Part shown: positions 2,812-50,281 of the stretch, one piece after another | How positions within the stretch are numbered: position 1 is the stretch's first letter | Layout: every line of letters starts with the position of its first letter | Assembly (NCBI GenBank): GCA_040377305.1 | Contig: JBEIPA010000002.1 | Span: forward strand, 1 to 64,000 | Source of the DNA: Flavobacteriales bacterium | GTDB lineage: Bacteria > Bacteroidota > Bacteroidia > Palsa-965 | Direction of reading: 5' to 3' | Length of the DNA: 64,000 nucleotides | The notes under the pieces: model-generated | What the model was told of the DNA's origin: nothing | Databases searched by the model: none | The model's input: only the letters and a program-made list of their open reading frames with translations | Position numbers and translations under genes: made by a program

Positions 2812-2885
2812 ACTCAAATTTACAAAAACACATCGAAACATTTGTTCGATTTCGCGTATGTTTGATTCAATTTACCACTGATTCG

Positions 2886-4247
2886 ATGGACCCTATTACG
2901 CTGCTTGTGATTTACATCCTTCTCGCGATTTTCATTGCGTGGATCTGGGTGGACTATTTCCGTCTGATCGATGTTTTCGAGAAGGAGAACCTGTTGAGAG
3001 TGGGTGTTACCTTTCTGTTAGGTGCGGGCTCAACACTGCTTGTTTTAGGCTTACACGAAATCTGGCCTGAACCTTTGTGGTTGTCGATGGACGGCACATT
3101 CGTCAACGATTTTCTCTATTGCACGTTTGGAATCGGGCTTGTGGAGGAAACAGCGAAAGCCATTCCTGTTCTGATTTCCTTTTGGCTGTTCCGCAAGCAC
3201 ATCAATGAGCCGGTTGATTATATCGCGACGTTCAGTATTGCTGCACTCGGTTTTGCTGCAGCGGAAAATGTTATTTACTTCTCTGAATACGGCGCTGGAA
3301 TAATCAGCTCGAGAGCAATCTTGTCGAACGTTGGACACATGATGTTTGCCTCACTCACTGCATACGGCGTAGTACTGGTGAAATTCAGAAACCTTCGTCC
3401 CGGATTCATCATCGTACCTCTACTCCTGCTTGCTGCTTCCGTCTTCCACGGCATTTACGATTTTGGTTTGATGTACGTTAATGCAGGATGGACCGGAACG
3501 CTGGTGACTATCCTATTCTTCTTCCTTGGTGTGTCCGCGTTTGCAACAATCCTGAACAACGCATTGAACATTTCTCCGTTCTTCACTTACAAACACGTAG
3601 TGCATTCGTCCAAGGTTGCAAAGCGAATGATTCTAAACTATGTAATCCTGTTTTCCGTTCAATGCATAGTTGTTCTCGCACTCACCGATTTCGGAACTGT
3701 GCTTGGATTAATCTTCGGTTCTGTCTGGACGATTCTTCCAATAGTTCTGATCACCGTTCTTCGTCTCAGTCGCTTCAAACTCATCCAGGGACGATGGAAC
3801 CTGGTAAAACCAGAACTTCCGTTTGGCATTTCATTCAGGAAGCCCGATAATCAGCCCGGATTTTTCATTGGTGTGAAAGGTAATCCGTACAGCGACTATC
3901 ACATGACGCAGCATTACGAGTCGTACTTGTTTCTCTGTCCGGTTGCAATCAATTCACACTACCTGCGCCAGCCACGCACGGCCTACATTTTCAGGAAGCT
4001 GTACATCAACGGAGACATCGCTCATTATGCCGCGCGTGTTTATGTAGATGATGCAATGCAGGAAACACAAACGGTGCTACTGCAATTACACCGAAGAAGT
4101 GCAGGCTTGTGGAACAATCGCCCATTGGTAGCGGTATTTCATGCGGAAAATTGTCACGAGCTCGACACAACAAATGCTCCCGTGAATGTGGCCTTCATTG
4201 AATGGGCGACGATTCAACCCGCTCCACAGCCAATAGTGCCGAACTAA
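2886..4247 (+). CDS. PrsW family intramembrane metalloprotease with C-terminal extension
   Basis: EETAK, GFAAAEN, GHMMF and FHGIYD motifs; many TM helices. Confidence 0.85.
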   Translation: MDPITLLVIYILLAIFIAWIWVDYFRLIDVFEKENLLRVGVTFLLGAGSTLLVLGLHEIWPEPLWLSMDGTFVNDFLYCTFGIGLVEETAKAIPVLISFWLFRKHINEPVDYIATFSIAALGFAAAENVIYFSEYGAGIISSRAILSNVGHMMFASLTAYGVVLVKFRNLRPGFIIVPLLLLAASVFHGIYDFGLMYVNAGWTGTLVTILFFFLGVSAFATILNNALNISPFFTYKHVVHSSKVAKRMILNYVILFSVQCIVVLALTDFGTVLGLIFGSVWTILPIVLITVLRLSRFKLIQGRWNLVKPELPFGISFRKPDNQPGFFIGVKGNPYSDYHMTQHYESYLFLCPVAINSHYLRQPRTAYIFRKLYINGDIAHYAARVYVDDAMQETQTVLLQLHRRSAGLWNNRPLVAVFHAENCHELDTTNAPVNVAFIEWATIQPAPQPIVPN

Positions 4248-4426
4248 ACGGCTATTAATTTCTGCAAGGCTTCTTCTACTGCTTCCGGAAGTTGACCAAT
4301 TCCCTTATCGGAAATCAAAACGTAATCCGGATTCGGTCTGTACTTCATCACATCCTTTGTGCGATCGTTGCAGAGAAATATTCCAATGATGGCTTGCTTA
4401 TCGATGTGCCGCTGAGAAATATCAGT
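4244..4426 (-). pseudogene. Orphan 3' fragment (60 codons plus stop) of the 158-aa gene at 23581-24057
   Basis: Translates as TDISQRHIDKQAIIGIFLCNDRTKDVMKYRPNPDYVLISDKGIGQLPEAVEEALQKLIAV*; 37/60 identical by hand alignment to the C-terminus encoded at 23581-23763; 5' part missing. Confidence 0.9.
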
Positions 4427-4868
4427 ATAGAGAGCAATGTAGAGTGTATCGCTCTTATTACTTCCTAAAGCAGAATTCGGACGTAACCTGTCTATTTCTC
4501 CGGACTTTCTAATTGCCGCGCGTTGCCCAGAACAAAATTGATGCTAAAAATGTACGCATCAGGCAAAAAAACGAATAATTGGATATAAAATGAATTTCAC
4601 GTTAAATTTTCATATACACCAATGCGATATCTGCTATACACGGATAAAATTATTGAACATATCCGCAACAAGCTATGATATTTACTATGAATCACGATAA
4701 ATAATATATACTATTGCTTTATGACATTTAATCCATAGATCGTATATTATACAATTCATGTATGGTGTCTCTTCCTGTTGTTGTAATTTGTAAATCAGGC
4801 CTTCTATTCAGAGGATCATAGGCAAATTACTGGTGCTGATTGGAGTAACTTTTCAACGCAGTAATAGT

Positions 4869-6074
4869 ATGCCTACAAAAATTCTGGTTTGGAATATTCA
4901 GAATTTTACGATCAATAAAATTGATCCGAATTTCGTGAATCATATAGTTGTTCCATCCGTGCATGGTGGATTTAGCTTCCAAACAGTTCAGTTATCGACC
5001 ATGAAGCTGGACTATATTTTGAATAATGTAATAGTAACTGATCCGGATATTTTTAGTGTTATCGAAGTGATTAGTGGGCGTGGGCCTAAAGGAAGTCTTG
5101 TGTCGAGTAAAGGTGCGCAAGGAGTGTTAGCGTTATTGAACAGTCTTCGTAAACTGAATACGAATTGGTGTTTGGTTCCACCACTCAAGCTAACGGATAA
5201 AATACAATTGTCTGAAGCAGATGATGGTCATATTGAATTGTTATCTGACGGAACTTATACAGAAGCGATTGGTGTTTTTTATCGAAAAGACCGGCTGGAT
5301 TTTGTTGGTCCGTATGTCTGGCCGGCGGCGGGCAGCAATGATAATCCGAATAAAATTGCAGACCCTCGTGATGGTACTGTGGCTGGCCCTTATCCGGATG
5401 TTTGGAGTAATTGCCTGCCTCCGGGAAATTATAATGCCGGTCAATATGAGTTTTATACAGAGGACGATCAGGAACTATTATTTCCTGCTGAAGGAAGTCG
5501 GCGACCTTTCCTTACGCAGTTTGTAGAAAGGGGTGGAAATCAGCGCACCATTTCGCTCGCATCGGTGCATTATCCTCCCAATCAATCCAGCGCCATTACT
5601 GCCTGGGCACGAACGATACGCTATTTCATCGACGACTACCCTCTGGGTGATAAGGAGGTGGTGTGTATTGCCGGAGATTTTAATATTAATTATCGTGGAG
5701 AGGATTATGTGCCGACCGATTTTTACTCGACCTACTATAATTTTCATACACTGATCAATGGAAAAAAATACTTCCCGACCATCTATCAACGTAATGCTAA
5801 TGCAACACCCTGGATATATGTTAAGAATCAAGGGCTGGATAATGCTACGGTACGTTATGGGCCTCAGGCACTAGAATTCAATCCGACCTTTGAATTTATG
5901 GATCGTGTTGAAGCGGGAAATCATCCGTCATTACTTTATAACGATCTCAATGTTATCCGCGCACTCCCCACGGTGGATGAACAAAATGAATTATTCCGAC
6001 AACCCAATAATTTCATGAAACTCGGCCCGGTTCCCGGCACGAGTGATCATATAGGTATGTTCTACACTATATAA
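4869..6074 (+). CDS. EEP (DNase I-like endonuclease/exonuclease/phosphatase) superfamily protein, paralog 1
   Basis: Ordered motifs WNIQN, DIFSVIE, SVHYP, GDFN, GLDN, SDH; no signal peptide. Confidence 0.85.
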   Translation: MPTKILVWNIQNFTINKIDPNFVNHIVVPSVHGGFSFQTVQLSTMKLDYILNNVIVTDPDIFSVIEVISGRGPKGSLVSSKGAQGVLALLNSLRKLNTNWCLVPPLKLTDKIQLSEADDGHIELLSDGTYTEAIGVFYRKDRLDFVGPYVWPAAGSNDNPNKIADPRDGTVAGPYPDVWSNCLPPGNYNAGQYEFYTEDDQELLFPAEGSRRPFLTQFVERGGNQRTISLASVHYPPNQSSAITAWARTIRYFIDDYPLGDKEVVCIAGDFNINYRGEDYVPTDFYSTYYNFHTLINGKKYFPTIYQRNANATPWIYVKNQGLDNATVRYGPQALEFNPTFEFMDRVEAGNHPSLLYNDLNVIRALPTVDEQNELFRQPNNFMKLGPVPGTSDHIGMFYTI

Positions 6075-6085
6075 GCTGAAGCAGA

Positions 6086-7309
6086 ATGTCAACAAAAATT
6101 CTTTGCTGGAATATTCAGAATTTCACGATCAATAAAATCGATTTTTCATCGGATAATAATGAATTGATCAAGATACCGACCACGGGCGAATCGTACATGT
6201 TCACCGGCAGTATTACAATAAAAAATAATTACATCCTGAATAATGTTGAAACAAGCGATCCGGATATTTTCATTGTCATCGAAGTCATCAGTGGTCGAGG
6301 TTCCAAAGGAAGTCTCGTGTCATCGAAAGGCGCTCAGGGTGCATTAACCTTGCTGGACCGCTTACGTGTAATCAATAACAACTGGTGCCTGGTACCTCCG
6401 CAAAAATTAACCAATGAAGTACAGCTTTCTGATGCCGATGGCGACGAGAATGCGGTAACCCTATTGAGTGAAGGCGGCTATACCGAAGCGATTGCCGTTT
6501 ATTACAGAAAAGACAAACTGGATTTTATTGGTCCTTTTGTTTGGCCGGATACCGCTGATAGTCCCGCTAAAACTGCCGTTGCCCCGGGAGCTGGTGTTAC
6601 ACCCGGCGCGTATCCTGATATCTTCAGTAATTGTTTGCCCGCTGGAAATTATTTTGCGGGACAAACTGTTTTTAAAACAACCGCCGATGTACCCAAAGAA
6701 ATTTACTTTCCGGCCGAAACAAGTCGCCGTCCTTTTCTCACCTGTTTCACTGAGAAAGCAGGATTGCAACGAAAATTAAGTATTGCGTCGGTACATTATC
6801 CGCCGCAAGCTCCGAATGCTAAAACAGCACTTGTACAGACCCTGAAGTACTTCACCGAGTGCTACGTCATGATTCCGAATGAGGTAAATATCATTATCGG
6901 TGATTTTAACGTGGACTATAATAATGACAACCTGAACATTTTTGGTACCGCTAAGGTGCTTTTCAATTACTATCCACTTTTTACGGATAGAAATCAGACC
7001 ACCGGAACGATCTATTACAATAAAAGATACGCTACTTATAAAAAGTATATCAAAAGTTCGGGTTTGGATAATGCGCTCCTGCGTTATGGTTCGCAAGGGG
7101 CGTATGGCATGGCACCTGTAGGTCTTGTGCTCGATCGTGTAAACGTATCCGCCTTGGGACAACTCAGTCAGATGTACAATTCGTATGCACAAATTGGTAC
7201 GCTGCCCCAGCTTCAGCAAGATGAAGTTTTTTTAAAACCATTTAACTATCCGGGATTAGGGCCTGCTCCGGGAACGAGTGATCACTTAGCTATATACGTT
7301 GAACTTTAA
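6086..7309 (+). CDS. EEP superfamily protein, paralog 2
   Basis: WNIQN, DIFIVIE, SVHYP, GDFN, GLDN, SDH; shares blocks such as EVISGRG.KGSLVSSKGAQG with paralog 1. Confidence 0.85.
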   Translation: MSTKILCWNIQNFTINKIDFSSDNNELIKIPTTGESYMFTGSITIKNNYILNNVETSDPDIFIVIEVISGRGSKGSLVSSKGAQGALTLLDRLRVINNNWCLVPPQKLTNEVQLSDADGDENAVTLLSEGGYTEAIAVYYRKDKLDFIGPFVWPDTADSPAKTAVAPGAGVTPGAYPDIFSNCLPAGNYFAGQTVFKTTADVPKEIYFPAETSRRPFLTCFTEKAGLQRKLSIASVHYPPQAPNAKTALVQTLKYFTECYVMIPNEVNIIIGDFNVDYNNDNLNIFGTAKVLFNYYPLFTDRNQTTGTIYYNKRYATYKKYIKSSGLDNALLRYGSQGAYGMAPVGLVLDRVNVSALGQLSQMYNSYAQIGTLPQLQQDEVFLKPFNYPGLGPAPGTSDHLAIYVEL

Positions 7310-7321
7310 CTGAAAAGGGCG

Positions 7322-7639
7322 ATGCCAACGAAAATACTCTGCCGGAACATCCAGAATTTCACGTATAACAAGATTGATCCTGCTACGTCAGAAATCAGCG
7401 TTGTGCAAACGGTGCCAACTTCGTTACCGGCAGTCGGTACGGGCACAGCAGCTGCGCCGATCAACCGTGTTAATGTATCGGCGTTGGGACAGGCTTCACT
7501 CATGTATAATTCACCTGCACAAATCGCGATGCTTCCTCCGTGCGAACAGGATGATGCGTTTCGCCAACCTTTCAATTTCGGAAAACTGGGGCCGGTGCCG
7601 GGAACCAGTGATCACATGGCCATTTATTTAGAATTGTGA
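7322..7639 (+). pseudogene. Mini-EEP: third paralog with an in-frame internal deletion (may still be translated)
   Basis: N-terminus MPTKILCRNIQNFTYNKID fused to C-terminus RVNVSALGQ...LGPVPGTSDHMAIYLEL; about 300 aa of the core absent. Confidence 0.75.
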
Positions 7640-7771
7640 AACAAGTATATGAAACTGCAATACATACTTCAGACAATATGGAATTTGATTCTGAAATCAT
7701 GAAATTGGTTTTTTGGAGGAAGAAAAAAAAGAACACCGGCAATTGTTACTAATGAATTAACGACGATAACC

Positions 7772-10700
7772 ATGAGTTTACAATCCATCGCAACAACATT
7801 AAACGGTCAGGCCACATCAACCGGTACGGTTACAATTAACGATGCGTTGCTGGCAACGGGTAATACTGCTTTTGCAACACTGGTGAGTACTCAGTTGCTG
7901 CGCCCGGCCGGTAATATCATGCTGAATGCATCATCCGTTCCGATTCCGCCAACATCAGCAAGCAGTTTTAGTTTTAACTGCACAATGCCCACTGCTGCAG
8001 CGAATAGTTTTCTGAACCTGAATGCGAATACCGCAACGGCAACCATTTCGCTGGTTGGTACTGTATATCAATTGCAGTTGTCGATACAACTCACATCAGG
8101 AGCAACACCCAACTGGGTGATGAGTACCAGTTTCAGTGATATGCTTGGATGGCCTTTCGATTCATTGCCGGTGACCAGTCCTCAATTTCTTTTTATTTAT
8201 GGAACAGTAAGTTTACCAGCGGGAACAGCAGAAGGCTTAAACTATTCGGCCACACCGTCACTTACAGGCATGCTCGCACCAGCTGCTGTATTTCTGACCT
8301 TATTTGGATACACCAGTCCGCCAATGACTGCTTTGACAGGATCGATATCACAAACAGCAAACGGAACTGCTTTTTTATTGCGCAGTTCGTTTACCTCGGT
8401 TACGAATCTTGATCTGGTAGCATTGACGATCAATAACCTTAACGTAAGTGCCATTTTTGGTTATACCACACCACCTTCCGGGAGCGGATTGCAACCCGAA
8501 GGTTGGGGACAAATTGTTTTAATGGCCGAAACAACATTGTCTGGTGCAAGCGATCCGATTGATGTATCCTTAGTATTACCCTATACCAATTCATCACCAT
8601 TTCTTTCGTTGGTGATTGCACCACCGCCGGGTTCATTAGCAACGAGTTTGAACAACCTGGGAGAATGGATGGCTGGCGATACATGGGATAGTTTTTTTAC
8701 GGGAACACCGGCAAGTGTATTGCTCCCATTTCTAACCACATTCGGATTACGTTCTTATACGCTTACGTTCGGATTATCAGGAACATCATTTTTACCTACA
8801 TCTGTAATGAGCTCCACTTTAAGTGTGGGAACATTAACGCCTTGGGACATCAATCCGCCCAATCTCATCATGCAGGAATTTTTTGTGACCTGGCAATTGA
8901 TCGATCCGTTTGGTGCCGCATTCAGTGCCATTTCGATTAACGGCGAACTGGATATGTTTAATGGTGGTGCCAATGAAGTAAAATTTACCGGTTCAATTCT
9001 ACTTCCGGAATTACAGCTCTCCCTGGCATTAGCTTCCGAAAAACAGATGACAGCGGCAGATTGGCTGACCACTATTGTTGTTGCTTTTGGCGGATCAACA
9101 CCTCCCACTTATATTCTCGATGCGTTAAGTGGTTTCAGTCTGGAAACCATCGTCTTCAGCATGGATGTGCCGAATGAAGATTTTACATATCAGATGGCGG
9201 GTGGATTTTTAGTAGGTGATAATAATGTTGATTTCAGTTTATACGTGCATATCAATATTAAAACCACATTTACATACGATCTGAAAACCGAATTTAATTT
9301 CGCCAGCGTAGCTGTAATGGGCGAAATAAAAAATGACAGCAGTACTAATAATCAAACGGTAATCACCGGAACCTGGCGCGATGCGACGAACCCTCTTCAA
9401 TTAAATAATATTGCTATATCCTTAGGTTTTGGTGATCTGGGTATTCCGCCCGCATTGGACATGGCCCTGAAATTTGTCGGGCTGACCTATAATCTTGATA
9501 CATCCACATTCATTATCGGAGCGGAGTCGTTGAACTATGGCAATGCCGATCTGGTTGTTTTTAAACCGGCTGGTGCTCCGAAATTTATTTTCTTCGGCGG
9601 CCTCGTTGTTGACAAGCCGATTGATCTTACCAATTTGCCTTTAGTGGGTCAGGCCCTGGCGAAATTGCAAACCGTCGAAATCCGCGACCTGCAAATCCAG
9701 ATTACATCTGATGTAATTACGCCCGCACAAGCAACAACATTGAACGCGCTGATTACTGCACTCGACCCTTCATTGCCGGTTATTCCTGCTCAGGGTATGG
9801 CGTCGACGGTCAACATCTCGATGAATTTTGATATTGCCGGATTCATCATTCCGATCGGAACCGGTCTCGGCGGGCAAAGCGCTTCAGCGGGCATGCCTCC
9901 GAATAAAAGTTCTGTGCAAGGAACTCCTTCAGGAAATACAAACGCACCTGTTCCTTCAAGTCCCGGATCGCAGTCCGACGGTACATCCTGGTTCAATTTA
10001 CAGAAGGCCGTTGGTCCGGTCATGTTTCGCCGCATCGGTATCCGATATAAAGATTCTGTCTTGTGGTTTGTTCTCGATGCCTCCTTCAGTGCCGGCGGTC
10101 TCACAATCGATTTACTCGGTGCAGGAATCGGTTCACCTCTTACCACATTCGAACCGCAGTTCACCGTTGATGGATTAGGTCTTGATTTTTCAGAACCCGG
10201 ATTCGAACTCGGTGGTACATTCATGAAAGTTCCGCCATCAGCCGGTGTTGATTGGGAATACGCCGGTGGAGCCGTAATCAAAGCCGGTAATTTTGCGATC
10301 TCTGCTTACGGAAGTTATGCGAGCATGGACGGCACACCATCCATGTTTGTATTTGGGCAGGTAACCGGAACGTTCGGTGGACCACCAGTGTTTTTTGTAA
10401 CTGGTTTCGCAGGTGGATTTGGTTACAATTCAAGTTTACGTTTGCCGGCTGTAAATGAAATTTATCAATTCCCTTTAGTTGGCGGCGCACAAAATCCTGC
10501 CGTAATCGGAGGTAGTTCACCGAAACCTGCAGAAGTGCTCGCAATCCTGCTTGGGCTTAACGGCGGCACAGCATGGGTTACACACGAGATTGGTCAATAC
10601 TGGTTTGCAGCCGGAATTCAATTTACAACGTATTCAATTGTCAATACGAATGCATTGCTCGTTATCGAATTTGGCAAGCGTTTGCAATTCGCATTACTCG

Positions 10701-12115: not shown

Positions 12116-12178
12116 TGATGCATGGAAATACGATGATGCAATCAATCAAACAATCGCACAGTTCTGAAAAATAAAAAT

Positions 12179-14503: not shown

Positions 14504-14523
14504 ACGAATTTAAAAAATAGAAT

Positions 14524-17500
14524 ATGGCTACTAATAATCCTCTGTTCGTTCCTGTAGTGGTTGATGCATTTATGATCAATCAGAATGTGCTGAACAATAT
14601 AAACAGCAATACACAGCGTTGGCAATATATGTATAGTCAGTTGCCCGGTTTCAAAACGCCACAACCGGTTCCATTTCAGTCTAATGCAAACCTTTCATCA
14701 ACCGGTGTGATCCTGCACTGGAAGCTTCCGCAGATCATGCGCAGTGGTAATCAAAATGCAAAAACAGGTGCCATGGATTATCCGCTTGTACCTAATCGCT
14801 GGCTGGTGATTCGTTACAGTGGTCCGGCCACTGCACGGCAGGCTGTGGCCTGGGTTGTGCAGAGTGATGCGCTGGGAAACAGTACGCCCATCACGGGTGG
14901 TGCACCATACATACAACCGGGTTCAACGTTACAGGCAACGCATATCGGTCAGGTTGTGAGTTTAAGTAATTGGAATGAACCGAACCCGCAACTTTTTCTA
15001 ACTGCAATAGCACCGGGCAATAATATGTTTGCGTCGTATCAACCGTATTGCCAAAGTGTTTTTTCTATTTATGATCCGTTAACCGGAATTGACGCGCAGG
15101 ATAATCTGAGTTACATGGTTGCCGGTTGGTACTCTGACAGCAATGAAGATATCACTGGATCATGGCAAACGAACAATATCAGTTTCGATGCTTTTTTAGA
15201 ACAGGCAGGATGGCAGATTGCCAATCAGCAGGGCGACACAGCAACGTACGCTATTTACCACAGCATGGTCTGGGGTCTGCAGTGGAATATGAATGGTGCT
15301 GCTCCGAACAACTCACCCTCATCAGCCGATCTGAAAGTTGCAGTTGGAAATACAACTGTAGATGCACTTACTGCCATGATCAAGGCGCAGGCCGCTGCAG
15401 CAAAATCAGAAGTCAATGCCGAACTATTGGAAGCATTGCAATATGGATTAATCAATCAATTTGATCAGCAGGATCCTGAATTTGAATTGAAACAATCCAT
15501 TGAACAGGCGTGGTTCGGGCAACAGAGTGGCGGTTACAGCTGGGAAATCGTAGATGTTCCCGTTGATCCGACTACAGGTGATCCACCACCGCCGGTAAGT
15601 GAACAGGAATTAGCTAAGGAGGAAGTCTGGCTTGCCACACTCAATCAAAATCAAATTACCTATGATCAGAACGTTGCACAACTGGCGCAACTGCAATGGA
15701 ATTTATATCAAACCTGGTGGAAGTATAATTACTATCTGCAAAACCCAAGTGCAAGCGGATGGCCGCAGGGAACGACACAGCAACAATTTGAAGATGCATT
15801 GAATCCCGCGCTCACAACAAGTCTCGTGTATCAGGTCAATTCGTTGCAAGACGTAATTGAACAAATGGCGTCATCAAATGAAGTACCGGTTGGCGTAACA
15901 CAGGATATTTTACAAGCACAGATTGATGCGTATGCTACAACACAACAATTGCCGGCCACAAGACAATTGAAACAATTTGCCAACCGGCCATTTTCCAAAG
16001 CCAATGATCCTGTGGTATTGGTGCAAGGACTTGGTGTGGATGATCAGCTTTCACCTTCCATGCCGTTGGTATGTCGTTTTATGAGCAGTCTTGTAACCGG
16101 TTTTAATTATAACAGTGCACCGATTACGGTATCGCAAGTGGCGTCGGTAATTCCTACACCGGCAAATATGGCGGCGGTTCCTTCGCAAATGATCAATCTG
16201 ATGCAGGAATTTTTTATGCTCGATCCCTTCAATGCGACTATGATTGCTCAGGCTGCATTGGAAAGTACGGATCCCACAGTGATTCAGAATGTAGCTACTG
16301 CAATGACCGGTGGAAAAAATGTAATTGGTGTTGCACCTGATCTGAATCTGAATACATGGACGCAACCCTGGTCGCCATTGGTGATGATGTGGGACATCGC
16401 GTATTATCCGATTCCGCATGATAACTCCGGCACGAATCTGTGGTCCTTTGACGGCAATGATTACACCTGGAACGGAAATAATATGCCGAATCCGGTTCCG
16501 CAGCCGTTGGAATTTATGGGGTCCATTTTTATGACACCGCAGGCAAGCTTCAATTTTCGTGCGCAGATGGAAAAATATATTTATGATAATCCGGATGCAA
16601 CGAATGTTATTGCGTTGAACGATTTTATTGAAAGCACAGATGGTTGGGATTTTCTTTCGCAATCTTTTGCGGGACTTACACAAAATCTGAACCTGCGCGA
16701 TCCGATGCCGAATATGTCGCCATCATTTGAAACAACGATTTATTATCCGAACACCACCTTAACCGATCTCGTTGGCAATAACGCAACATATGTTCCGCTA
16801 CCCGGCCCCATGCAGCCACAGGCTTTTACTCCTTGGCCGCCAACTAATTTTCAGCCTTGGCGCGCGGGTCAGTTTTATGTCAAACAATTAGTGATTGCCG
16901 ATCGTTTTGGTCAGCTCTGTGAAATTGTAACCAATCAGACACAAACGCAATTCGCTCCATACCTTGCCGATTCAGTTACACCGCAGTTTCCGGTTATACC
17001 GCAGGAATCGTATCGCTTCGTTCAGTTGCCGCCACGTTTGTTACAACCGGCACGTCTCAATCTTGATTTCGTTTCTGCCGCAAATGATAATCAACCGATC
17101 GGTACGAATCCGGGAACCAATCCGGTTTGCGCCTGGTTATTGCACAATTTTCTGGACGAAAGTATTGTTACGTATGACAATGGCGGAAACATTCTTGGGG
17201 CCGTTTGGATAACTACCAACGTACAAGCGCAACAGGTTGTTTCCTGGGTGCAGGCACCGGAAAGCAATTATCCGAGCATTGCTTCTTTATTGGATAATCC
17301 GGATCTGGCACATCTCGGTCAAATGCTGACTTCGATTCAAACGCTTGGCCCTGCTGCATTTTATAGTTTTTTAGAAACACTTGATGATGCCGTTTGGACG
17401 ATTGACAGTAATGCAACAACCAGCGATCAGGGAATGATTTTGCTGGCCGGAAAACCGGTTGCGCTGGTACGCATGAGTCTGAATTTCGATCTGAATGGTC

Positions 17501-18153
17501 AGCCTTTGACGGACCCGAGCTGGCGTTTCACTTTTGCGCCCTCTCCAAATCCGATGACGGGCTATGATTTTAATATCCGTCTGGGTGAAGCAGGACGACA
17601 ACAGGATGGATTGATTGGCTATTTCGTCGGTTCAAATTATGATCAACTCTATACACCACATGTGCCCGAGAATGTTCCCGATCCGAATTACGTGCTCGAT
17701 GTAGCAACAGGCGATTCTGTAAGCCTCAGCTTTACTACAGGGTCGATCGCATACTTAAGTGTGTTGATGGATCCGCGTTCAGTAGTACATGCCACGACAG
17801 GAATTTTACCGATCATCAGTATTGGCATTCCACAAGGTTTCGTAGCCGCTGCTTTTGCCAATATGGAAATCACATTTAATATCGGACCGCTGATGACAGA
17901 CACGGTACAACAGAAAGACGAAAATAATGTCAATGAAACACCGGCATTCACGATGCCGATACCATCACTGAGAAACGGAACCTGGGATTGGCAACAGTAT
18001 GATTTTGATTATACAAAGCAACCACCAGCCGATGGTAAATGGAATACGTATCCGATTGCACCGGTTAATCCGAACGCTAATTTCAATGCGATCAATCCGG
18101 TAATCCGTGAAGGTTTGCTCCGATTGACAGGAGCTGAAAGCGGAGGAATTTAA
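14524..18153 (+). CDS. Hypothetical protein (1209 aa), putative partner of the DUF6603-like protein
   Basis: Long ORF in the operon; GVILHWKLP, VPNRWLVIR, LSYMVAGWY, QPWSPL, DRFGQ, QLPPRLLQPARL, DGLIGYF, VHATTGILP; helical Gln-rich segment. Confidence 0.8.
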   Translation: MATNNPLFVPVVVDAFMINQNVLNNINSNTQRWQYMYSQLPGFKTPQPVPFQSNANLSSTGVILHWKLPQIMRSGNQNAKTGAMDYPLVPNRWLVIRYSGPATARQAVAWVVQSDALGNSTPITGGAPYIQPGSTLQATHIGQVVSLSNWNEPNPQLFLTAIAPGNNMFASYQPYCQSVFSIYDPLTGIDAQDNLSYMVAGWYSDSNEDITGSWQTNNISFDAFLEQAGWQIANQQGDTATYAIYHSMVWGLQWNMNGAAPNNSPSSADLKVAVGNTTVDALTAMIKAQAAAAKSEVNAELLEALQYGLINQFDQQDPEFELKQSIEQAWFGQQSGGYSWEIVDVPVDPTTGDPPPPVSEQELAKEEVWLATLNQNQITYDQNVAQLAQLQWNLYQTWWKYNYYLQNPSASGWPQGTTQQQFEDALNPALTTSLVYQVNSLQDVIEQMASSNEVPVGVTQDILQAQIDAYATTQQLPATRQLKQFANRPFSKANDPVVLVQGLGVDDQLSPSMPLVCRFMSSLVTGFNYNSAPITVSQVASVIPTPANMAAVPSQMINLMQEFFMLDPFNATMIAQAALESTDPTVIQNVATAMTGGKNVIGVAPDLNLNTWTQPWSPLVMMWDIAYYPIPHDNSGTNLWSFDGNDYTWNGNNMPNPVPQPLEFMGSIFMTPQASFNFRAQMEKYIYDNPDATNVIALNDFIESTDGWDFLSQSFAGLTQNLNLRDPMPNMSPSFETTIYYPNTTLTDLVGNNATYVPLPGPMQPQAFTPWPPTNFQPWRAGQFYVKQLVIADRFGQLCEIVTNQTQTQFAPYLADSVTPQFPVIPQESYRFVQLPPRLLQPARLNLDFVSAANDNQPIGTNPGTNPVCAWLLHNFLDESIVTYDNGGNILGAVWITTNVQAQQVVSWVQAPESNYPSIASLLDNPDLAHLGQMLTSIQTLGPAAFYSFLETLDDAVWTIDSNATTSDQGMILLAGKPVALVRMSLNFDLNGQPLTDPSWRFTFAPSPNPMTGYDFNIRLGEAGRQQDGLIGYFVGSNYDQLYTPHVPENVPDPNYVLDVATGDSVSLSFTTGSIAYLSVLMDPRSVVHATTGILPIISIGIPQGFVAAAFANMEITFNIGPLMTDTVQQKDENNVNETPAFTMPIPSLRNGTWDWQQYDFDYTKQPPADGKWNTYPIAPVNPNANFNAINPVIREGLLRLTGAESGGI

Positions 18154-18298
18154 ATCTAACCGCTAAGGATTATTTAACCGGATCAGTCCGCAATCCTGCC
18201 TGTTGCTGATTTACACGAATAGTAGTAATACAGGTTGCAGGTTTAGGTGAGCAATGACCGAATAAAAATTAAACCCATAATCAATAAAAACGATCATC

Positions 18299-19972
18299 AT
18301 GAGTTACCAACCAGTTACATCCAACACATTACTCACATACGCATTGAATACATTACCCGATCCTCTTCAGGTATCGCCCGCTTCAGGTAACACGGTTTAT
18401 GCAGCACTAACTTTTGTGGTGTCCAATAACACCAATCCGGCAACAGTTGTCAATGTTTCGAAAATTCAATTCGCTATTCCTGTTGGTGGAACGGGTGCGC
18501 AGTCACTCGCGTCAAGCGCAGTCGGCATACTGGGCAGCGCAAGTCCTTCCGCAGATTGGAATTTTGCGGTTGATCAGTCAACCGGAATTTGTACAGCAAC
18601 CACAACATCCGGTAATCCGATACCGGTAACAACCAATGGCATCATCTTTCAGGTGTATAATATTGCTGTGGTGAAAGAAACAGGAACGGTTGCAATTACA
18701 GTAACCGAAACAGCATCAACAGATTCGCTTCCATCGCAGGCACGATTGGCAACATTTAATGTCGCGAAATTTCCGTACGGTTTTTTCTTTACCAATTTCA
18801 CGCCAAATGTGCCAATGGTACAGGATCAAGGCACGGTAACACTTACGTGGGAAGGATCCGATCAGGCCGGTTATACGATGTTCTGGAATGATCAATCACA
18901 GAATGTTACCAATGTGCGTAGCTGGACTTCACCTGCACTCACCACCGATACAACATTTCTCTTACGTGCAGCGGTTGTATCATTGGGACAAACCGTTACA
19001 GCTGATTTAACCACTACAGTTGTTGTAGCCAATCCCGAATTGCAAGGCAGTTCATTGAATGTAAGCGGAACAAGTGTGTTGAATGGCAATACAACTATTG
19101 GCAGCAATTCATCTACTGCTGTGCTGGTAAAAGGAGCTGCTAATTTTTCGGCGCCGGCGGTGTTTGCAGGCGCAACATTGAACGGAACAACAACAGCGAC
19201 GAATCTTACAGTGAACCAGAATCTCACTGCATCCGGAATCGTGAATATGAACAACGCGACCTTGAGTGGAAACCTTACTGCAGGTTCGGCAACTGTGAAT
19301 GGTTCTCTAACTGCCGCATCACTGAATGTTTCAGGTGCAACTACATTCGGAACAATCGGCGCAAGTACGGTTAATACAACCAATGCAACGGTGAGTGGTA
19401 ACATGGCAGTAACCGGAACGGCCGGTATTATTGGTCCGAATATTCAGGTCCTGATTGGTAACCTTGGAAGTTCGGTAACCTATACTGCAAACACTGATCT
19501 TATGGTAACGGCCAATATAAGTTCATCAGTTAGCGGTCAGGATAAAAAAAGTTATGGTTGGGCAACGATCAGCACAGGTGGCAGAAGTGTAAACTGTTCC
19601 GGTGGAAATGTTTCAGGACCGGGAAAGAAGACCTATGGAACAAGCGGTGCCGCAACCGCTTTTGTGAGGAAAGGGACTCAGTTCACCATCACCGCTTCCA
19701 ACGATAAAGACAATGATCATACAATATGGCGCGACTTTTATGTTTGGTCACTCGGTAATGCCGGTTCACTTGCTGCTCTGGCAACTGAAGTAGCAACAAG
19801 GCAACTCAGTGAAGAAGAGATTGCGCAACATGAACAGCAAACCGGCCTGTCATCTCCCGGTCTGCAGATTGATGTGAATCAGTTGGCGGAGCAATTGCTG
19901 GAGTGTTTTCAAAAAAATGACAAAACCAAACTTACCGGATTATTGCGGGAGATGTTGCGTCTGAATGAATGA
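18299..19972 (+). CDS. Tail-fibre-like protein 1 (shared adaptor, beta-repeat shaft, variable tip)
   Basis: N-terminal ~245 aa homologous to the next two genes; L.V.G.T repeats; distinct C-terminus. Confidence 0.7.
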   Translation: MSYQPVTSNTLLTYALNTLPDPLQVSPASGNTVYAALTFVVSNNTNPATVVNVSKIQFAIPVGGTGAQSLASSAVGILGSASPSADWNFAVDQSTGICTATTTSGNPIPVTTNGIIFQVYNIAVVKETGTVAITVTETASTDSLPSQARLATFNVAKFPYGFFFTNFTPNVPMVQDQGTVTLTWEGSDQAGYTMFWNDQSQNVTNVRSWTSPALTTDTTFLLRAAVVSLGQTVTADLTTTVVVANPELQGSSLNVSGTSVLNGNTTIGSNSSTAVLVKGAANFSAPAVFAGATLNGTTTATNLTVNQNLTASGIVNMNNATLSGNLTAGSATVNGSLTAASLNVSGATTFGTIGASTVNTTNATVSGNMAVTGTAGIIGPNIQVLIGNLGSSVTYTANTDLMVTANISSSVSGQDKKSYGWATISTGGRSVNCSGGNVSGPGKKTYGTSGAATAFVRKGTQFTITASNDKDNDHTIWRDFYVWSLGNAGSLAALATEVATRQLSEEEIAQHEQQTGLSSPGLQIDVNQLAEQLLECFQKNDKTKLTGLLREMLRLNE

Positions 19973-20011
19973 TATAATTCTCCAATAAATTACACAAACA
20001 CCCTACACGCC

Positions 20012-21673
20012 ATGAGTTACTCACCGGTTTCTTCCAACACTTTATTAGCTTACGCACTTGACGTTCTTCCTGATCCGTTACAAGTTTCGCCCCCAATAGG
20101 GAATACCGTTTACGCCGCACTAACGTTTTCCATTTCCAATAATTCAACTACTGCTGTTTCTTTATCGAAACTGCAGTTTCAGTTGCCGATCGGGACATTA
20201 GCACAGGATCTTACAGCGAGTTCAACAGGTGTAATTTGTTCGGCAAGTCCCGACGGAGTCTGGGACATAAGTATTGATGCGAACGGATTATGTACCGCAA
20301 CACCTTCATCGGGAGTGCCGGTTGTTGTTACCACAGAAGGCATCATCATGCAATTGTATAATATCGCCGTGAACCAGCAAACAGGTACGATAAGTATAAG
20401 TGTAAATGAAACAGCCGGTAATTCAGGAAGTACTCCAACAGTACAATCTGCAAGTTTTAATGTGGCCAAATTTCCGTACGGATTTTATTTTACAAATTTT
20501 ACAGCCAATGCCACGCAGGTAGCCGATCAGGGAACAGTTATTTTAACCTGGGAAGGGAGTGATTATAAAACATCGTATTCGATTACAGCAGGTGGATCAG
20601 CTCCGGTTGATGTAACAAATGTGCGGACATGGACTTCTCCGGCTTTGACGAATGATACAACATTTATACTTACCGCGAGTGCTACTTCATTTGGAGAAAC
20701 TGTTACAACTACTTTGTCAACAACCGTTATTGTTTCAAATCCGGAACTGTCAGTGGAATCACTTGTTGTAAGCGGTAATAGCAGCTTACAGGGGCCGTTA
20801 AGTGTAACAGGAACAACCACTATTAACAATACATTATCTGTTGCCGGAGCAACCAACATTTCCAATTCGCTCAGTGTAAGCGGTGCAAGTACACTTGCGT
20901 CATTAACTGTGAATCAGGAATTGACTGCAGGTGCAGGTATTACTACCAGTCAACTGACTGCAACTGATTTAAACATCAATGGAGGTGGTTTTTTTACTTC
21001 GGGATACTCCACACCTCCACCTGCTACAACATACGGACTATGGATCAACTATAATCCTGAAGATGGATCTGGCTATATTTCATCATCTGCTGACCCAGGA
21101 CTTTTCGGAGGGCAGACTATGCTTGTGCTACAGCCAAACGGGAGTGCGGTTATTAGTGGTGTGTGGATACAGGGGACGAGCATTGATGGTGTCACCGATG
21201 AGAATGGCAATGCTACTCCTATTATTCTAAATAGCGTAATGGATCAATCTGGTAATTATGGGGATGTTTGGTCTTATGGCTACACAACAATAAACAACTC
21301 AATGTATGTTGCCGGCACACTTACATCGGGTTCATCCGGAACCATGTCGGTTCCTGCTGATGCAGCGTTGATGGAAGAGGTATCTGCTTATCAGGATGGT
21401 TTGGAGCAGGTGCTTAAACTTAATCCTGTAAAATTCCGATACAGCGAAACATCCGGTTACGACAGGCAGAAGGAGCATGTCGGACTTATCGCTCAGGATG
21501 CACATGCAATCGCTCCATATCTTTTTCATACATCAAGAAAAGGAAAATCCAAAGAAGAAATTCTGCATCACGATGCCGGTGCAATGACCTATATGCTGGT
21601 GAATGCTGTAAAAGAACTAAAAGCCGAAATCGATGCATTACGTGATGAATTGAAATTGATGAAAGAAAAGTAA
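20012..21673 (+). CDS. Tail-fibre-like protein 2 with C-terminal Peptidase_S74-like intramolecular chaperone
   Basis: LEQVLKLNPVKFRY...GLIAQD...LVNAVKELKAEIDAL is the endosialidase-chaperone pattern; shared N-terminus. Confidence 0.8.
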   Translation: MSYSPVSSNTLLAYALDVLPDPLQVSPPIGNTVYAALTFSISNNSTTAVSLSKLQFQLPIGTLAQDLTASSTGVICSASPDGVWDISIDANGLCTATPSSGVPVVVTTEGIIMQLYNIAVNQQTGTISISVNETAGNSGSTPTVQSASFNVAKFPYGFYFTNFTANATQVADQGTVILTWEGSDYKTSYSITAGGSAPVDVTNVRTWTSPALTNDTTFILTASATSFGETVTTTLSTTVIVSNPELSVESLVVSGNSSLQGPLSVTGTTTINNTLSVAGATNISNSLSVSGASTLASLTVNQELTAGAGITTSQLTATDLNINGGGFFTSGYSTPPPATTYGLWINYNPEDGSGYISSSADPGLFGGQTMLVLQPNGSAVISGVWIQGTSIDGVTDENGNATPIILNSVMDQSGNYGDVWSYGYTTINNSMYVAGTLTSGSSGTMSVPADAALMEEVSAYQDGLEQVLKLNPVKFRYSETSGYDRQKEHVGLIAQDAHAIAPYLFHTSRKGKSKEEILHHDAGAMTYMLVNAVKELKAEIDALRDELKLMKEK

Positions 21674-21776
21674 GCGGAAGAATTGTTGGCGACCCAATTC
21701 AGTTTTCTATTCATTTTTTACGAAAGAACTGTTACACGAATTCTCTAATCAATTTAATTTATAACACCTACACACC

Positions 21777-23417
21777 ATGAGTTACACACCCGTTTCTTCC
21801 AACACATTTTTAGCGTACGCGCTCGACATTCTTCCTGATCCGTTGCAGGCTTCGCCAACAACTGGAAATACAGTTTACGCTGCTTTAACATTTTCCATTT
21901 CCAATAATTCAACCACTGCTGTTTCTTTATCGAAACTGCAGTTTCAGTTGCCCATTGGAACATTAGCGCAAGACCTTACGGCGAGTTCAACCGCAATTAT
22001 TTGTTCGGCCAGTCCGGCAGCTGCCTGGGATATCAGTATCGATGCAAATGGATTATGCACCGCTACACCATCATCAGGCACGCCTATTTCAGTTACCACA
22101 GATGGCATCATCATGCAAGTGTATAATGTTGCAGTGAATCAGCAGACAGGAACCGTAAGCATTACTGTAACTGAAACAGCGAGCAATTCGGGTGGTGCAC
22201 CAACGAATCAGTTGGCGACTTTCAATGTTGCTAAATTTCCTTACGGGTTTTACTTTACCAATTTTGCAGCCAACGCAGCACAAGTGGCTGATCTGGGAAC
22301 AGTAACACTAACGTGGCAGGGAAGCGATATGGCCGCATACACGTTAATGTACGCCGGTACTTCTGTTGACGTTACAAATGACCGCACATGGACCTCGCCA
22401 CCTTTATCGAATGATACCACATTTATTCTGACGGCATCAGTTGTATCGCTGGGTACCACAGTCACGTCTACCTTGTCAACAACTGTTATTGTTTCCAACC
22501 CGGATGTTACGGCCACATCACTTGCCGTGAGTGGTAATACCAGTTTGCAGGGAACGTTGGGTGTTAATGGAGCTGTGAATGCAAATAATGTGCTAACTGT
22601 TGGTGGTGCAACTACACTCAACAGCACATTAAGTGTAACCGGTGCCAGCACGCTCTCGTCGGTTACTGTAAACGGTGCTTTAAATGCGAGTGGTGGAATA
22701 ACTACTTCGCAATTAATATCAAGCGGAGCTACTGTGAATGGTAACGCTAGCATCGCTGGAACACTGAGCCTCACGAGCCTTCAGGCAATTGGTACGCCTC
22801 AGTTAATCTATTCGGGAAATACTGCTTACGGGAATTCGTTTACGGCACCTACCGATGGTTTTGCCTGTGGCTATGTAACCGGACCTACACCAAACAATAC
22901 ATTGGCTTTGGTTTATCTGTGGGCATCAAGCAATGGCGCCAGTACAAGTGCGTCGGGTGGAAATAGCTGTGTGGCTTTTAGCTGGGATGGAAGCAGCGGA
23001 ACATCCTGGATGAACAATGTTTCCGGAAGTTTTTGTCTACCTGTTGCTAAGGGCAATTCATTTACCGTCAGCGGAGGTTATCCCAGTAATAATGCTGTAA
23101 ATCCAAATTATAGTTTGTACTGGATTCCAATTGGATCGGGAACTGTATCGTTAGCAGCGCCCTTAGCAACATTAGAACACAAAATTCCTGAAGTTCCTGA
23201 ATTTAGTTTTATCACCAATAAAAATAAGTACACCCATGAGCCCGCAGTCAATGGTTTGATGAATGTGCTGTCAGAAATTTTTGGCGATAAACTTTCAGCG
23301 GATTTAAAGGTTAAGCTTCACGACGCTGTGAAGGAATTGGTTTATAATGAAGGAAAAGAAACGATTAGTGGAACGATGGGTGCTGCCGATAAACCTTCGC
23401 CGAAAAAGAAAAAGTAA
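21777..23417 (+). CDS. Tail-fibre-like protein 3
   Basis: N-terminal ~310 aa highly similar to fibre 2 at protein and DNA level; tip FTAPTDG...LPVAKG...YWIPIG. Confidence 0.7.
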   Translation: MSYTPVSSNTFLAYALDILPDPLQASPTTGNTVYAALTFSISNNSTTAVSLSKLQFQLPIGTLAQDLTASSTAIICSASPAAAWDISIDANGLCTATPSSGTPISVTTDGIIMQVYNVAVNQQTGTVSITVTETASNSGGAPTNQLATFNVAKFPYGFYFTNFAANAAQVADLGTVTLTWQGSDMAAYTLMYAGTSVDVTNDRTWTSPPLSNDTTFILTASVVSLGTTVTSTLSTTVIVSNPDVTATSLAVSGNTSLQGTLGVNGAVNANNVLTVGGATTLNSTLSVTGASTLSSVTVNGALNASGGITTSQLISSGATVNGNASIAGTLSLTSLQAIGTPQLIYSGNTAYGNSFTAPTDGFACGYVTGPTPNNTLALVYLWASSNGASTSASGGNSCVAFSWDGSSGTSWMNNVSGSFCLPVAKGNSFTVSGGYPSNNAVNPNYSLYWIPIGSGTVSLAAPLATLEHKIPEVPEFSFITNKNKYTHEPAVNGLMNVLSEIFGDKLSADLKVKLHDAVKELVYNEGKETISGTMGAADKPSPKKKK

Positions 23418-23431
23418 AAATGATTTATCCT

Positions 23432-23466
23432 GGTAGTGCAGGCATTCATACCTGCACTACCTTTTA
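23432..23466 (+). terminator. Intrinsic terminator closing the island operon
   Basis: GGTAGTGCAGG-N8-CCTGCACTACC followed by TTTTA. Confidence 0.75.
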
Positions 23467-23580
23467 TGAATAAATCGATAGGTGGCCAGTAATCCGGAAG
23501 AATATGATTTAATCAAACTCATATAGAAAAGGATTCTCTTTCTATACAGTGGATGTCGCTATTTATAGTGGAAACGGCCA

Positions 23581-24057
23581 CTACGCATTAATGAGTTTCT
23601 TAAGCTCCAGCTCAACCTGTTCCGGAAATTGCGCAACTCCTTTTTCTGTGACGAGTAAATAATCGGGATTAGGACGATACTTCCCCACGTCGGTTTTAAA
23701 TTCATTGCACAGAAATATTCCGATGATGTCTTCTTTATCGACATGCTCCTGAGAAACATCAGTTGCCGCCGGTGATCTTCTGTCGATGATAAACACAAAT
23801 CCATTCGGTTGTTCTTCGGCGCGGGCAATTACCTGCGGATCGTTCACCATGATGTCGCGTACGAGCGCATGCATGTGAACGAGAAAATCTTTGTTGTAAG
23901 AAATGTTTCCCGGTACAACACCGATCTCGGGTTCATTCAGTTGTCCGATAAACAACTCACTCCTTGATTGAACACTTTTCAATTCTTCCTTCGTGAAAGG
24001 AGAAATCAAGTGAATTTCATTCGGACCATTTTGTAGGAGAAGGACGTTGCAGTTCAT
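23581..24057 (-). CDS. Hypothetical protein (158 aa); target gene of the island insertion
   Basis: Intact ORF; its last 183 nt have a diverged copy at 4244-4426. Confidence 0.8.
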   Translation of the reverse strand: MNCNVLLLQNGPNEIHLISPFTKEELKSVQSRSELFIGQLNEPEIGVVPGNISYNKDFLVHMHALVRDIMVNDPQVIARAEEQPNGFVFIIDRRSPAATDVSQEHVDKEDIIGIFLCNEFKTDVGKYRPNPDYLLVTEKGVAQFPEQVELELKKLINA

Positions 24058-24087: not shown

Positions 24088-24963
24088 TTATGCCGGACAA
24101 TACCATTTCTCTTCCCTCACGCGTACATATTCCTTACCATCCCATTCGTAGAATCCATACTTGTAAGTGGTGTCAAACGTTCGGATATCCGGCATTCCAT
24201 TGTGCTCTGTTTCGAGAAAATCAATTTGTGCAGCATCCGGAAATTCACAGAGGAACACTGCTTCACCATATGTATTCCTGGTAAAAAAGTATTTCCCGCC
24301 GATGCCTTCTCCAGTTACGATTATCGGCATTGAATCTTTGCCCAGATTGAGATAACTGATTGTGAGCTCAATCGGACCATATCCTTCCATTTCGCTAACG
24401 AGATCATGAATCCTGAAGTAATCAGACTGCGGAGTAAACAACGACATTTCTACAAATTTGCTTCCGTCGAACCGATACGCCCAATGGTCCATATCCCATT
24501 TGTCGCAAATAATGAAATCAAGCAGTCCGTTATGCGAAATCGGCAAGATGGTGTCGACAGCACCGCACTGATCAAACATCTTCACCCAATGTCCGGTCGA
24601 TTCTGAATACCGCGCTACCACGAGTTGGGCACCACAGGAACCCTTTGTATTGCCGGCGCAGGTTTCTATAAGAACAGTCTCATCTGTCACAGGCCATGCG
24701 TTGAGCCAAAATATTCGGGTGTTCGAACTGTCGGGCTCTGTATGAGACATTGAAGAATCAACTTCGAGAATATCCTCCAACATCCGCATCGTTGCTTTAT
24801 CGAACCGCCCCGGCATTGCGAATACCTGTCGCTGATAAGAGAACGCAACTTTCGTAATGGTGTCGTGCATTTCTGTAATTTCCGGCTTTTCAAAATACAC
24901 GTACGGACGAATCCACATCGTCGTAAGCAATACACCTGCAAGAAAAGCCAGAAAGAGTTTCAC
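24088..24963 (-). CDS. Exported or membrane-anchored hypothetical protein with duplicated HNG..D...(F/W)DG..(F/Y) module
   Basis: Hydrophobic N-terminus; internal repeat; C-terminus similar to 25957-26577. Confidence 0.7.
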   Translation of the reverse strand: MKLFLAFLAGVLLTTMWIRPYVYFEKPEITEMHDTITKVAFSYQRQVFAMPGRFDKATMRMLEDILEVDSSMSHTEPDSSNTRIFWLNAWPVTDETVLIETCAGNTKGSCGAQLVVARYSESTGHWVKMFDQCGAVDTILPISHNGLLDFIICDKWDMDHWAYRFDGSKFVEMSLFTPQSDYFRIHDLVSEMEGYGPIELTISYLNLGKDSMPIIVTGEGIGGKYFFTRNTYGEAVFLCEFPDAAQIDFLETEHNGMPDIRTFDTTYKYGFYEWDGKEYVRVREEKWYCPA

Positions 24964-25044
24964 ATTGCAATACTATTCTTCCTGCTGATGATAACCCCGT
25001 GTGATTGAACAACTGCAACTACAAGTGAATAACTGTACGATTTC

Positions 25045-25749: not shown

Positions 25750-25956
25750 ATTAATCTCGCTGCCGGATATAGTTGTTCGGTCAGCTACGTTATTCGCTCA
25801 AAGCACATACCATTGCGCAAGCACTGCCAGTATCGCAGAACACCGCGTTTCCCAATGAAATGTTGACAGTTAATAAGTGTGAAAGTGGAAATTTTGTCTA
25901 CAATAAACACACATGTGAATGCGCTGATTTGCAGATATGCCGATTTGCAGATTGAA

Positions 25957-49434: not shown

Positions 49435-49485
49435 GAATTCGAATATTCTCAAGAAAATAAATATAGTTGCGGTCTATTAATGAGG

Positions 49486-50229: not shown

Positions 50230-50281
50230 ATTGGATAAATATATTCTAACACGAAATAATTTGACGACAGTCAAAAACGAG

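Follow-up and report, generated by a model that had tools for sequence, protein, structure and literature searches.

In the 64,000-nt stretch of a Flavobacteriales genome that we analysed ("the window"; assembly GCA_040377305.1, contig JBEIPA010000002.1, positions 1 to 64,000), a 19-kb block of genes lies between an intact gene for a 158-amino-acid (aa) protein and an orphan copy of the 3' end of that gene. We propose that this block, a cassette of genes around a DUF6603 (PF20248) protein, was inserted by the homologous recombination of the host and without an integrase, and that the orphan is the gene's native end. We put the probability of this reading at roughly 0.57. It is based on the empty sites in relatives, the chimeric intact gene, the decay of the orphan, the lack of a recombinase in the block, and two more loci of this kind in the same genome.

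The two ends of the 158-aa gene

The orphan (4244-4426, minus strand) and the end of the intact gene (23581-23763, minus strand) are each 183 nt long. A first-pass annotation of the window had noticed that they are homologous, and the homology is real: 37 of 58 amino acids and 121 of 183 nucleotides are identical, and the best 144 nt have 72% identity (blastn E ~1e-13 against the genome). As that annotation described, the similarity breaks off sharply upstream of position 4426, at the 15-mer CTGAGAAA(T/C)ATCAGT, which occurs at two sites in the 5.2-Mb genome (4412-4426 and 23749-23763) and at no others. The orphan lacks a start codon at the 5' end, and its stop (4244-4246) does overlap the stop of the prsW gene (4245-4247). 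The features at the two junctions are:

2784..4247, plus strand: prsW-family intramembrane protease gene (PF13367; start codon uncertain), the left flank, convergent with the orphan
4244..4426, minus strand: orphan 3' end of the 158-aa gene, codons 99-158
4397..4411, minus strand: putative switch zone of the orphan, codons 104-108, donor-type before it and host-clade type after it
4412..4426, minus strand: 15-mer copy at the start of the orphan, codons 99-103 (TD[I/V]SQ), 14 of 15 bases shared with the other copy; probable signature of the donor lineage
4427..4832: left edge of the block, AT-rich and non-coding, upstream of the operon; no arm-type repeat family was found in it
23432..23461, plus strand: terminator-like hairpin (consensus match only) between the operon and the convergent 158-aa gene
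23581..24057, minus strand: intact and apparently chimeric 158-aa gene (no named family), with a host-clade 5' part and donor-type sequence from about codon 82-90 to the stop
23749..23763, minus strand: 15-mer copy within the intact gene (its codons 99-103)
23788..23814, minus strand: putative switch zone of the intact gene, codons 82-90 (conserved EQPNGFVFI), which would be the true right edge of the donor-type tract
24088..24963, minus strand: 291-aa gene, the right flank; L028, a relative with an empty site, also has it upstream of its intact 158-aa gene

This layout is unlikely to stem from an assembly artefact. Contigs from sequencing run X1, which is a possible source sample, span both junctions at an even depth of ~15. 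The block is also present in run X2, from a second study (at least 99% identity in 28 of 41 contigs, and coverage in 28 of 30 bins). The first-pass annotation had suggested a search for an excised circle, which we can answer in part: the contigs of X1 and X2, which drop rare variants, have neither a circle joint nor an empty-site joint. Two other runs, X3 and X4, contain next to none of the sequence words of the flank.

Empty sites in relatives

Of the 26 other genomes of the genus, 20 have the 158-aa gene as a single copy, and it is absent from all 34 genomes that we searched outside the genus. Only this genome has two matches, and the result was the same when we repeated the search of 35 genomes with the orphan as the query. 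(One unpublished genome, G012, is counted in several of our tallies; no claim depends on it alone.) The conserved neighbourhood of the gene consists of icd, the 158-aa gene, a fatty-acid hydroxylase gene, prsW, and a DUF2851 gene. In G015, an intact 158-aa gene is convergent with prsW, and their stops overlap as they do here. Locus L028 has the full gene order of the window (291-aa gene, 158-aa gene, prsW, hydroxylase) without the block. Thus, the empty site that the first-pass annotation proposed to look for in related genomes exists, and relatives that lack the block at the same locus support its view that the block was inserted as a unit. The same annotation named two full tandem paralogs in relatives as the finding that would speak against a displaced end, and what we found is a single copy in each relative that has the gene.

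The 291-aa gene is at this place in the window and in L028 only, and its family is present in 3 of the 26 other genomes of the genus. The 291-aa gene and a 206-aa gene flank a zinc-peptidase gene (window 24088-26577) and are distant paralogs (33% identity over the C-terminal 92 aa); these two genes may be separate small gains.

The 158-aa gene did not match any family in Pfam, NCBIfam, PHROGs, or PADLOC. The model of its protein is confident (predicted local distance difference test score, or pLDDT, of 92), had no Foldseek match at E = 0.001 or better, and matched only unnamed clusters in the Atlas. We did not accept weak rows (E of 1.8 or worse) that would make it an ADP-ribosyltransferase.

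Mixed ancestry of the intact gene

We aligned the gene and the orphan with 95 homolog rows, a few of which are the same protein from two sources. Seven rows are closest over codons 1-98 (88-94% identity). These are 66-76% identical to the orphan versus 55-69% to the current end of the gene, and each of them is nearer to the orphan. The current end is nearest to P0008 (86%) and to G015 (79%), whose 5' parts are only ~70% alike. When the orphan was the query, host-clade proteins were ranked first.

We also typed the gene site by site, using the seven rows as "host" and six other rows as "donor-like". Up to codon 81, all 24 informative sites of the intact gene are host-type, and beyond codon 104 nine of its sites are donor-type; these two counts are partly built in, as the groups were picked on the gene's 5' part and its current end. 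The intact gene is also donor-type at codons 91, 97, and 98, upstream of the 15-mer, where the calls run against the choice of the host group. The orphan is donor-type at codon 105 and host-type at the seven informative sites from codon 109 on, and its typing is independent of how the groups were chosen.

The intact gene is, as judged from these comparisons, a chimera of mixed ancestry. Site typing, identities, and trees concur that its 3' end is of different ancestry, as the first-pass annotation had supposed. Separate trees for the gene's parts, which it had recommended, agree with mixed ancestry, but their branches are mostly weakly supported. In an approximately unbiased (AU) test, a tree with the two ends as sisters was rejected (p = 0.003). 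The orphan has five residues that are absent from all 95 homolog rows, and two of these (D110 and T122) are at columns that are invariant in a 54-sequence alignment, so the orphan is decaying. The rejected sister grouping, the decay, and the single copy in relatives all point to a displaced end rather than a whole tandem paralog. The idea that the orphan is the original end is probably correct: it groups with the closest relatives of the 5' part. It is not certain, as prsW is closer to the G015 type (see below).

Two other proteins, P0004 and P0199, look host-type at their N-terminal start and donor-type later, which makes them mosaics of both allele types. On the basis of these mosaics, the 158-aa gene may be a repeated recombination junction.

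The 15-mer is probably not a crossover site

The shared 15-mer looked like a single att-like recombination point in the first-pass annotation, and here our data disagree. It codes for codons 99-103, which are the most variable linker of the protein (among 1225 homolog pairs, only 44 agree at 4 of the 5 residues). Among 50 rows that have the five residues, only those of the intact gene, the orphan, P0004, and P0008 show the motif TD[VI][SA]Q, which P0199 has as well. L028 and the orphan match at 3 of the 15 bases, so the orphan's 15-mer is donor-type, not host-type. In the intact gene, donor-type sequence begins 25-50 nt upstream of the 15-mer, and the two switch zones differ (codons 82-90 of the intact gene versus codons 104-108 of the orphan). 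A single crossover at one core would not by itself yield such offset zones. Furthermore, windows that start at codons 110-113 also reach 14 of 15 identical bases between the two copies, so the 15-mer is conspicuous only because it lies in the variable linker. From these patterns, the 15-mer is probably not the crossover point and would instead be a signature of the donor lineage at both ends of the block.

We found little else that resembles an attachment site. The two edges have one and two short two-copy repeat families, and any arm-type repeats may have decayed. A scan for the 15-mer as a phage attachment site returned at least 120 loci, and none among the matches listed encode proteins of the window. 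There was no second fragment of the 158-aa gene in the 20 genomes of the genus that carry the gene, and neither this gene nor the 774-aa protein of the block has relatives in viral contigs.

As the first-pass annotation stated, no recombinase is encoded in the block: none of its genes matched a recombinase family in Pfam, NCBIfam, or PHROGs. The genome does have seven tyrosine recombinases (PF00589) and one serine recombinase (PF07508), all of them on other contigs; from their size and context, four of the seven tyrosine recombinases do not appear to be Xer-like. The window has no tRNA, positions 3500-25000 did not match any Rfam family, and PADLOC gave no match either. The annotation left it open whether the block was mobilised in trans or by homology. 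Recombination driven by homology fits our results better, and an integrase in trans fits them less well.

Two more loci with the same layout

We searched the genome for similar layouts using the C-terminal 70 residues of 4255 predicted open reading frames (ORFs) and direct repeats of 50-900 bp that are 1.5-80 kb apart. This gave 110 matches outside ORFs, and 14 pairs of an ORF with a non-ORF among 142 repeat pairs. A clear layout of gene, cargo, and orphan was seen at three loci, which are the only ones that we examined: the present locus and one each on contigs C22 and C6.

G000:C22:19634-25262 (locus L066): phnP-like hydrolase gene, gene for a 1490-aa protein sorted by the type IX secretion system (T9SS), orphan 3' end
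G000:C6:61351-76767 (locus L067): 154-aa gene, 14.7-kb cargo, 207-nt orphan end at 89% identity

The ORF lists of both loci contain no recombinase (Pfam was run on 13 of their proteins). At the C22 locus, the cargo is about 4.5-4.6 kb, and the orphan has 189 nt at 96% identity, with a one-base frameshift, followed by ~23 diverged codons; the duplicated piece is a near-identical segment of the host with a diverged tip. In run X1, the repeat is collapsed into one 146-bp contig, and the 96% may understate how alike the copies are. None of 24 loci in relatives has the T9SS gene within 1.5 kb. We did not count run X2 as an empty site for C22: the 4.6-kb cargo is uncovered there, the flanks are thinly covered, and no contig joins across. 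The cargo at the C6 locus includes four TIR-domain genes, an exonuclease, and a two-component pair. On one contig of G015, the 154-aa gene of C6 is represented by three fragments.

How the cassette may have entered

There is an experimental precedent for such a duplication. In E. coli, with homology on one side, 56 of 60 recombinants had a duplication of the target, of 109-950 bp in the 14 that were sequenced (PMC3240628). These duplications were ascribed to trimming, re-circularisation, and a single crossover, and the other 4 recombinants to true homology-facilitated illegitimate recombination (HFIR) (PMC3240628). Given this precedent, the abrupt start of the orphan at codon 99 can be explained without a special site.

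We think that the insertion likely took place in two steps. A lineage with the TDVSQ linker would have received the cassette together with a 3' piece of the gene that begins at codon 99. The incoming DNA, joined at its ends, would have entered by a single crossover, which would duplicate the end of the gene and keep the gene whole. If re-circularised DNA entered in this way, then the 15-mer would be just the first letters of the duplicated piece. This step alone predicts the same switch position in both copies, which is why we add a second one. The filled locus, bracketed by two pieces of the gene, would have passed into the present lineage by two crossovers, of which the one in the gene would lie in codons 82-90 and the one in the orphan in codons 104-108. 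This would have cost about 15 host codons (about 91-105) and left the 3' end of the host beside prsW. Alternatively, an earlier conversion instead of a second transfer may account for the offset switches. Either way, the "repair" of the gene would need no special machinery, as insertions that keep the gene whole would be the ones that persist. The genome has genes for ComEC, DprA, and ComM.

Several observations weigh against this proposal. The competence genes do not show that a cell is competent, and 8-10 of 14 control genomes have them too. The upstream switch consists of three residues only, and the host-clade protein P0007 shares two of them. The host and donor groups were named after we had inspected the first trees, and placing the current end inside the host clade was borderline in the AU test (p = 0.05). 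The two alleles are only 66% identical at the DNA level, which is low for RecA-type crossovers, although part of this divergence is decay since the insertion. We did not find a donor locus with the cassette beside the 158-aa gene in 17 GTDB loci (up to 10 kb of flank) or in L028; a metagenome scan with one protein as the query found 1 locus in 132 stretches. The 15-mer has a symmetry, CTGA-N6-TCAG, which is a perfect 4-bp inverted repeat (expected in 2.6% of random 15-mers). Finally, prsW is more similar to that of G015 (67%) than to that of L028 (62%), with 59 versus 38 informative sites, and this holds over most of its length, including the part next to the orphan. This weakens our host and donor labels.

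The symmetry would fit an integration at a 15-bp core by a tyrosine integrase, as for the e14 prophage in icd, with the integrase since lost or acting in trans and with the donor-type residues upstream explained by a separate conversion. An intact target, cargo, and a displaced 3' fragment are the classic signature of such events (PMC4383910; icd/icdC, PMC13626634), and the recombinases elsewhere in the genome could be a source of the enzyme. However, neither the block nor the rest of the contig has a match to PF00589 or PF07508, the putative core lies in a linker that homologs rarely share, and the switch zones are not at the same position. The edges have no families of arm-like repeats, and we saw no second fragment in the genus and no viral relative of the gene. 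We consider an integrase to be unlikely.

The similarity of prsW to G015 raises another, still less probable explanation, in which the polarity is reversed. The lineage would have been G015/P0008-like, the cassette would have entered with self-duplication, and DNA of the L028 type would later have replaced both flanks: the 291-aa gene with codons 1-85, and codons 106-158 of the orphan. The current end would then be native, and host recombination would still be responsible. Besides prsW, this is consistent with the restriction of the 291-aa gene at this place to the window and L028, with the mosaics P0004 and P0199, which imply that patches move both ways, and with the C22 locus, where a host segment was duplicated. 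On the other hand, it needs two separate patches that share an ancestry and flank a 19-kb block, with one patch in a dead fragment, where our proposal needs a single donor tract. The prsW identities are all deep (62-67%) and close to a star, and both allele types are found beside prsW at empty sites. The orphan as the native end is the simpler and likelier reading. The idea of a decayed tandem paralog (a duplication of the whole gene, with a cassette between the copies and loss of the 5' part of one copy) is largely refuted. The orphan is decaying, and a loss of its 5' part would leave no trace. However, no relative has two copies, the ends are not sisters, and the relatives of the 5' part match the orphan rather than the current end.

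The cargo is a DUF6603 cassette

The block consists of these genes:

4833..6074, plus strand: endonuclease/exonuclease/phosphatase-like (EEP-type) enzyme 1 (PF03372 below the cut-off, E = 0.003; GDFN and SDH motifs kept)
6086..7309, plus strand: EEP-type enzyme 2, 50% identical to enzyme 1
7322..7639, plus strand: third EEP copy with its catalytic middle deleted; the N-terminal ~20 aa are joined to the C-terminal part
7772..12115, plus strand: 1447-aa DUF6603 protein (PF20248, E = 2e-155)
12179..14503, plus strand: 774-aa conserved companion; confident model with no clear structural match
14524..18153, plus strand: 1209-aa conserved companion, no named family
18299..19972, plus strand: fibre-like protein 1, with a shared N-terminal domain and a variable tip
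20012..21673, plus strand: fibre-like protein 2, with a C-terminal peptidase S74 chaperone domain (PF13884; PHROG tail-fibre matches)
21777..23417, plus strand: fibre-like protein 3; its first 300 nt are 84% identical to those of protein 2

The deleted EEP copy and the three fibre paralogs imply repeated duplication inside the cassette. The GC content at third codon positions is 0.34-0.43 in the block and 0.47-0.54 in the flanks. By tetranucleotide distance, 2 of 246 windows of 19 kb in the genome are as far from the mean, where windows that overlap the block were kept in and low-complexity proteins add to the distance of the block. The 774-aa protein has 205 homologs in the database, of which the best is 62% identical (unnamed) and the next are 45-51% identical (with names from Chitinophagaceae). 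Copies from the genus are ~29% identical and are split in two genes. There are distant homologs in Actinomycetota and other phyla, and 8 of 401 genomes of the phylum carry the protein. The foreign composition, and homologs in the database that are better than those in the genus, support a horizontal gain, and from this sequence evidence the cargo is a horizontally acquired DUF6603 cassette.

DUF6603 matches are present in 11 of the 26 other genomes of the genus, and the cassettes that we fetched are in other gene contexts. The DUF6603 gene and the two companions are in the same order in G008, G016, G026, G295, G392, and G439, and are rearranged in G143. Across cassettes, the leading enzyme is EEP-type, metallo-beta-lactamase-fold, or DUF4135, and the tips of the trailing proteins are S74, Collar, Kelch, or Fib_succ_major. 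Thus, the other cassettes have the same two companion families, an enzyme in front, and proteins with variable tips behind, and the one in the window differs by its expanded arrays of enzymes and fibres. The cassette of G016 (L031:4980-11978) adjoins a gene set with PAPS reductase and AAA matches, which we take to be Dnd-like, and the cassette of G026 (L038:11345-15591) is near mnmE and a restriction-modification gene, so these cassettes are in variable regions. This genome also has a second DUF6603 cassette of another type (L026; G000:C56:38164-53952), with proteins of 889, 1139, 1031, 1636, and 594 aa, of which the first has a weak match to peptidase M64. By tblastn, its companions do not match the 774- and 1209-aa proteins of the window.

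The 774-aa protein has a confident model (pLDDT of 93). Searched whole, it had no sequence match in PDB and no Foldseek match in PDB or BFVD; its best VIA hit (Z of 4.8) was to Ig-like domains, and a whole-protein query may miss matches to single domains. We found no sheath, tube, or baseplate families in Pfam, NCBIfam, or PHROGs, and one of the three large proteins was folded. Our working guess is that the cargo encodes a particle or a complex on the surface, with fibre-like arms for binding, by which an exchangeable enzyme would be carried or delivered. Two related cassettes have a lysozyme gene immediately or a little way upstream (GH25 in G008, L029:13261-14217, and GH108 in G392, L059:13820-14485), which hints at release by lysis. 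There is no lysozyme gene in the block of the window. The literature that we searched does not mention the term DUF6603.

Elsewhere in the window, a low-GC patch (38-40%) at 48784-51102 contains a TIR/SEFIR gene and several unknown genes and is possibly a small defence insert.

Relation to known processes

The present locus resembles the insertion-duplications and HFIR events that have been described (PMC3240628, PMC2884548) in that there is one homologous anchor, no recombinase, and an abrupt, arbitrary start of the duplicate, and its 183 bp are inside the experimental range. It differs in the size of the cargo (19 kb versus ~1-2 kb), in the diverged alleles, and in the two offset switch zones. 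HFIR has a homologous anchor at one end, which here would be the switch in conserved codons 82-90, and the probable loss of host codons would fit, but the other end also starts with donor-type sequence that is homologous to the gene. Prophage e14 in icd, with its icdC remnant (PMC13626634), and the tDNA islands in Islander (PMC4383910) likewise have an intact target, cargo, a displaced 3' fragment in the same orientation, and a chimeric gene. Unlike in those cases, we saw no integrase and no excision here, the target is not used repeatedly, and a common crossover point seems to be lacking. Incoming modules also replace the 3' part of a gene and push the old end downstream in type VI secretion system (T6SS), Rhs, and contact-dependent inhibition systems, and HFIR-type displacement has been proposed for T6SS arrays (PMC5361080). 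In contrast to those polymorphic toxins, the gene targeted here is conserved and has a single copy, and its cargo is an unrelated operon. The literature that we searched gave no match for restored protein-coding targets, and its matches for C-terminal displacement with housekeeping genes were all, by title, on toxin or secretion systems.

We conclude that the locus is a well-documented new case of a known recombination process. It is likely a large gene gain without an enzyme from a mobile element, for which one can see the empty sites, the two parental types of allele, and the two switch zones. By design, such gains escape island finders in which an integrase and a tRNA target are prerequisites (PMC4383910). 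If the two-step scenario is correct, then cassettes bracketed by pieces of a gene spread across species by host recombination alone. More speculatively, two crossovers in the bracketing pieces of one conserved gene might be enough for a cassette to home into empty alleles in other species, and no integrase, endonuclease, or transposase would be needed. The locus would then be the trace of such a transfer between lineages, in which the 19-kb operon encodes a fibre-bearing machine that is undescribed and has new folds, and the same route might be a main source of new genes for the genus; we offer this only tentatively. The cargo belongs to a widespread and unstudied multi-protein system, and the borders of the block define a complete unit for expression.

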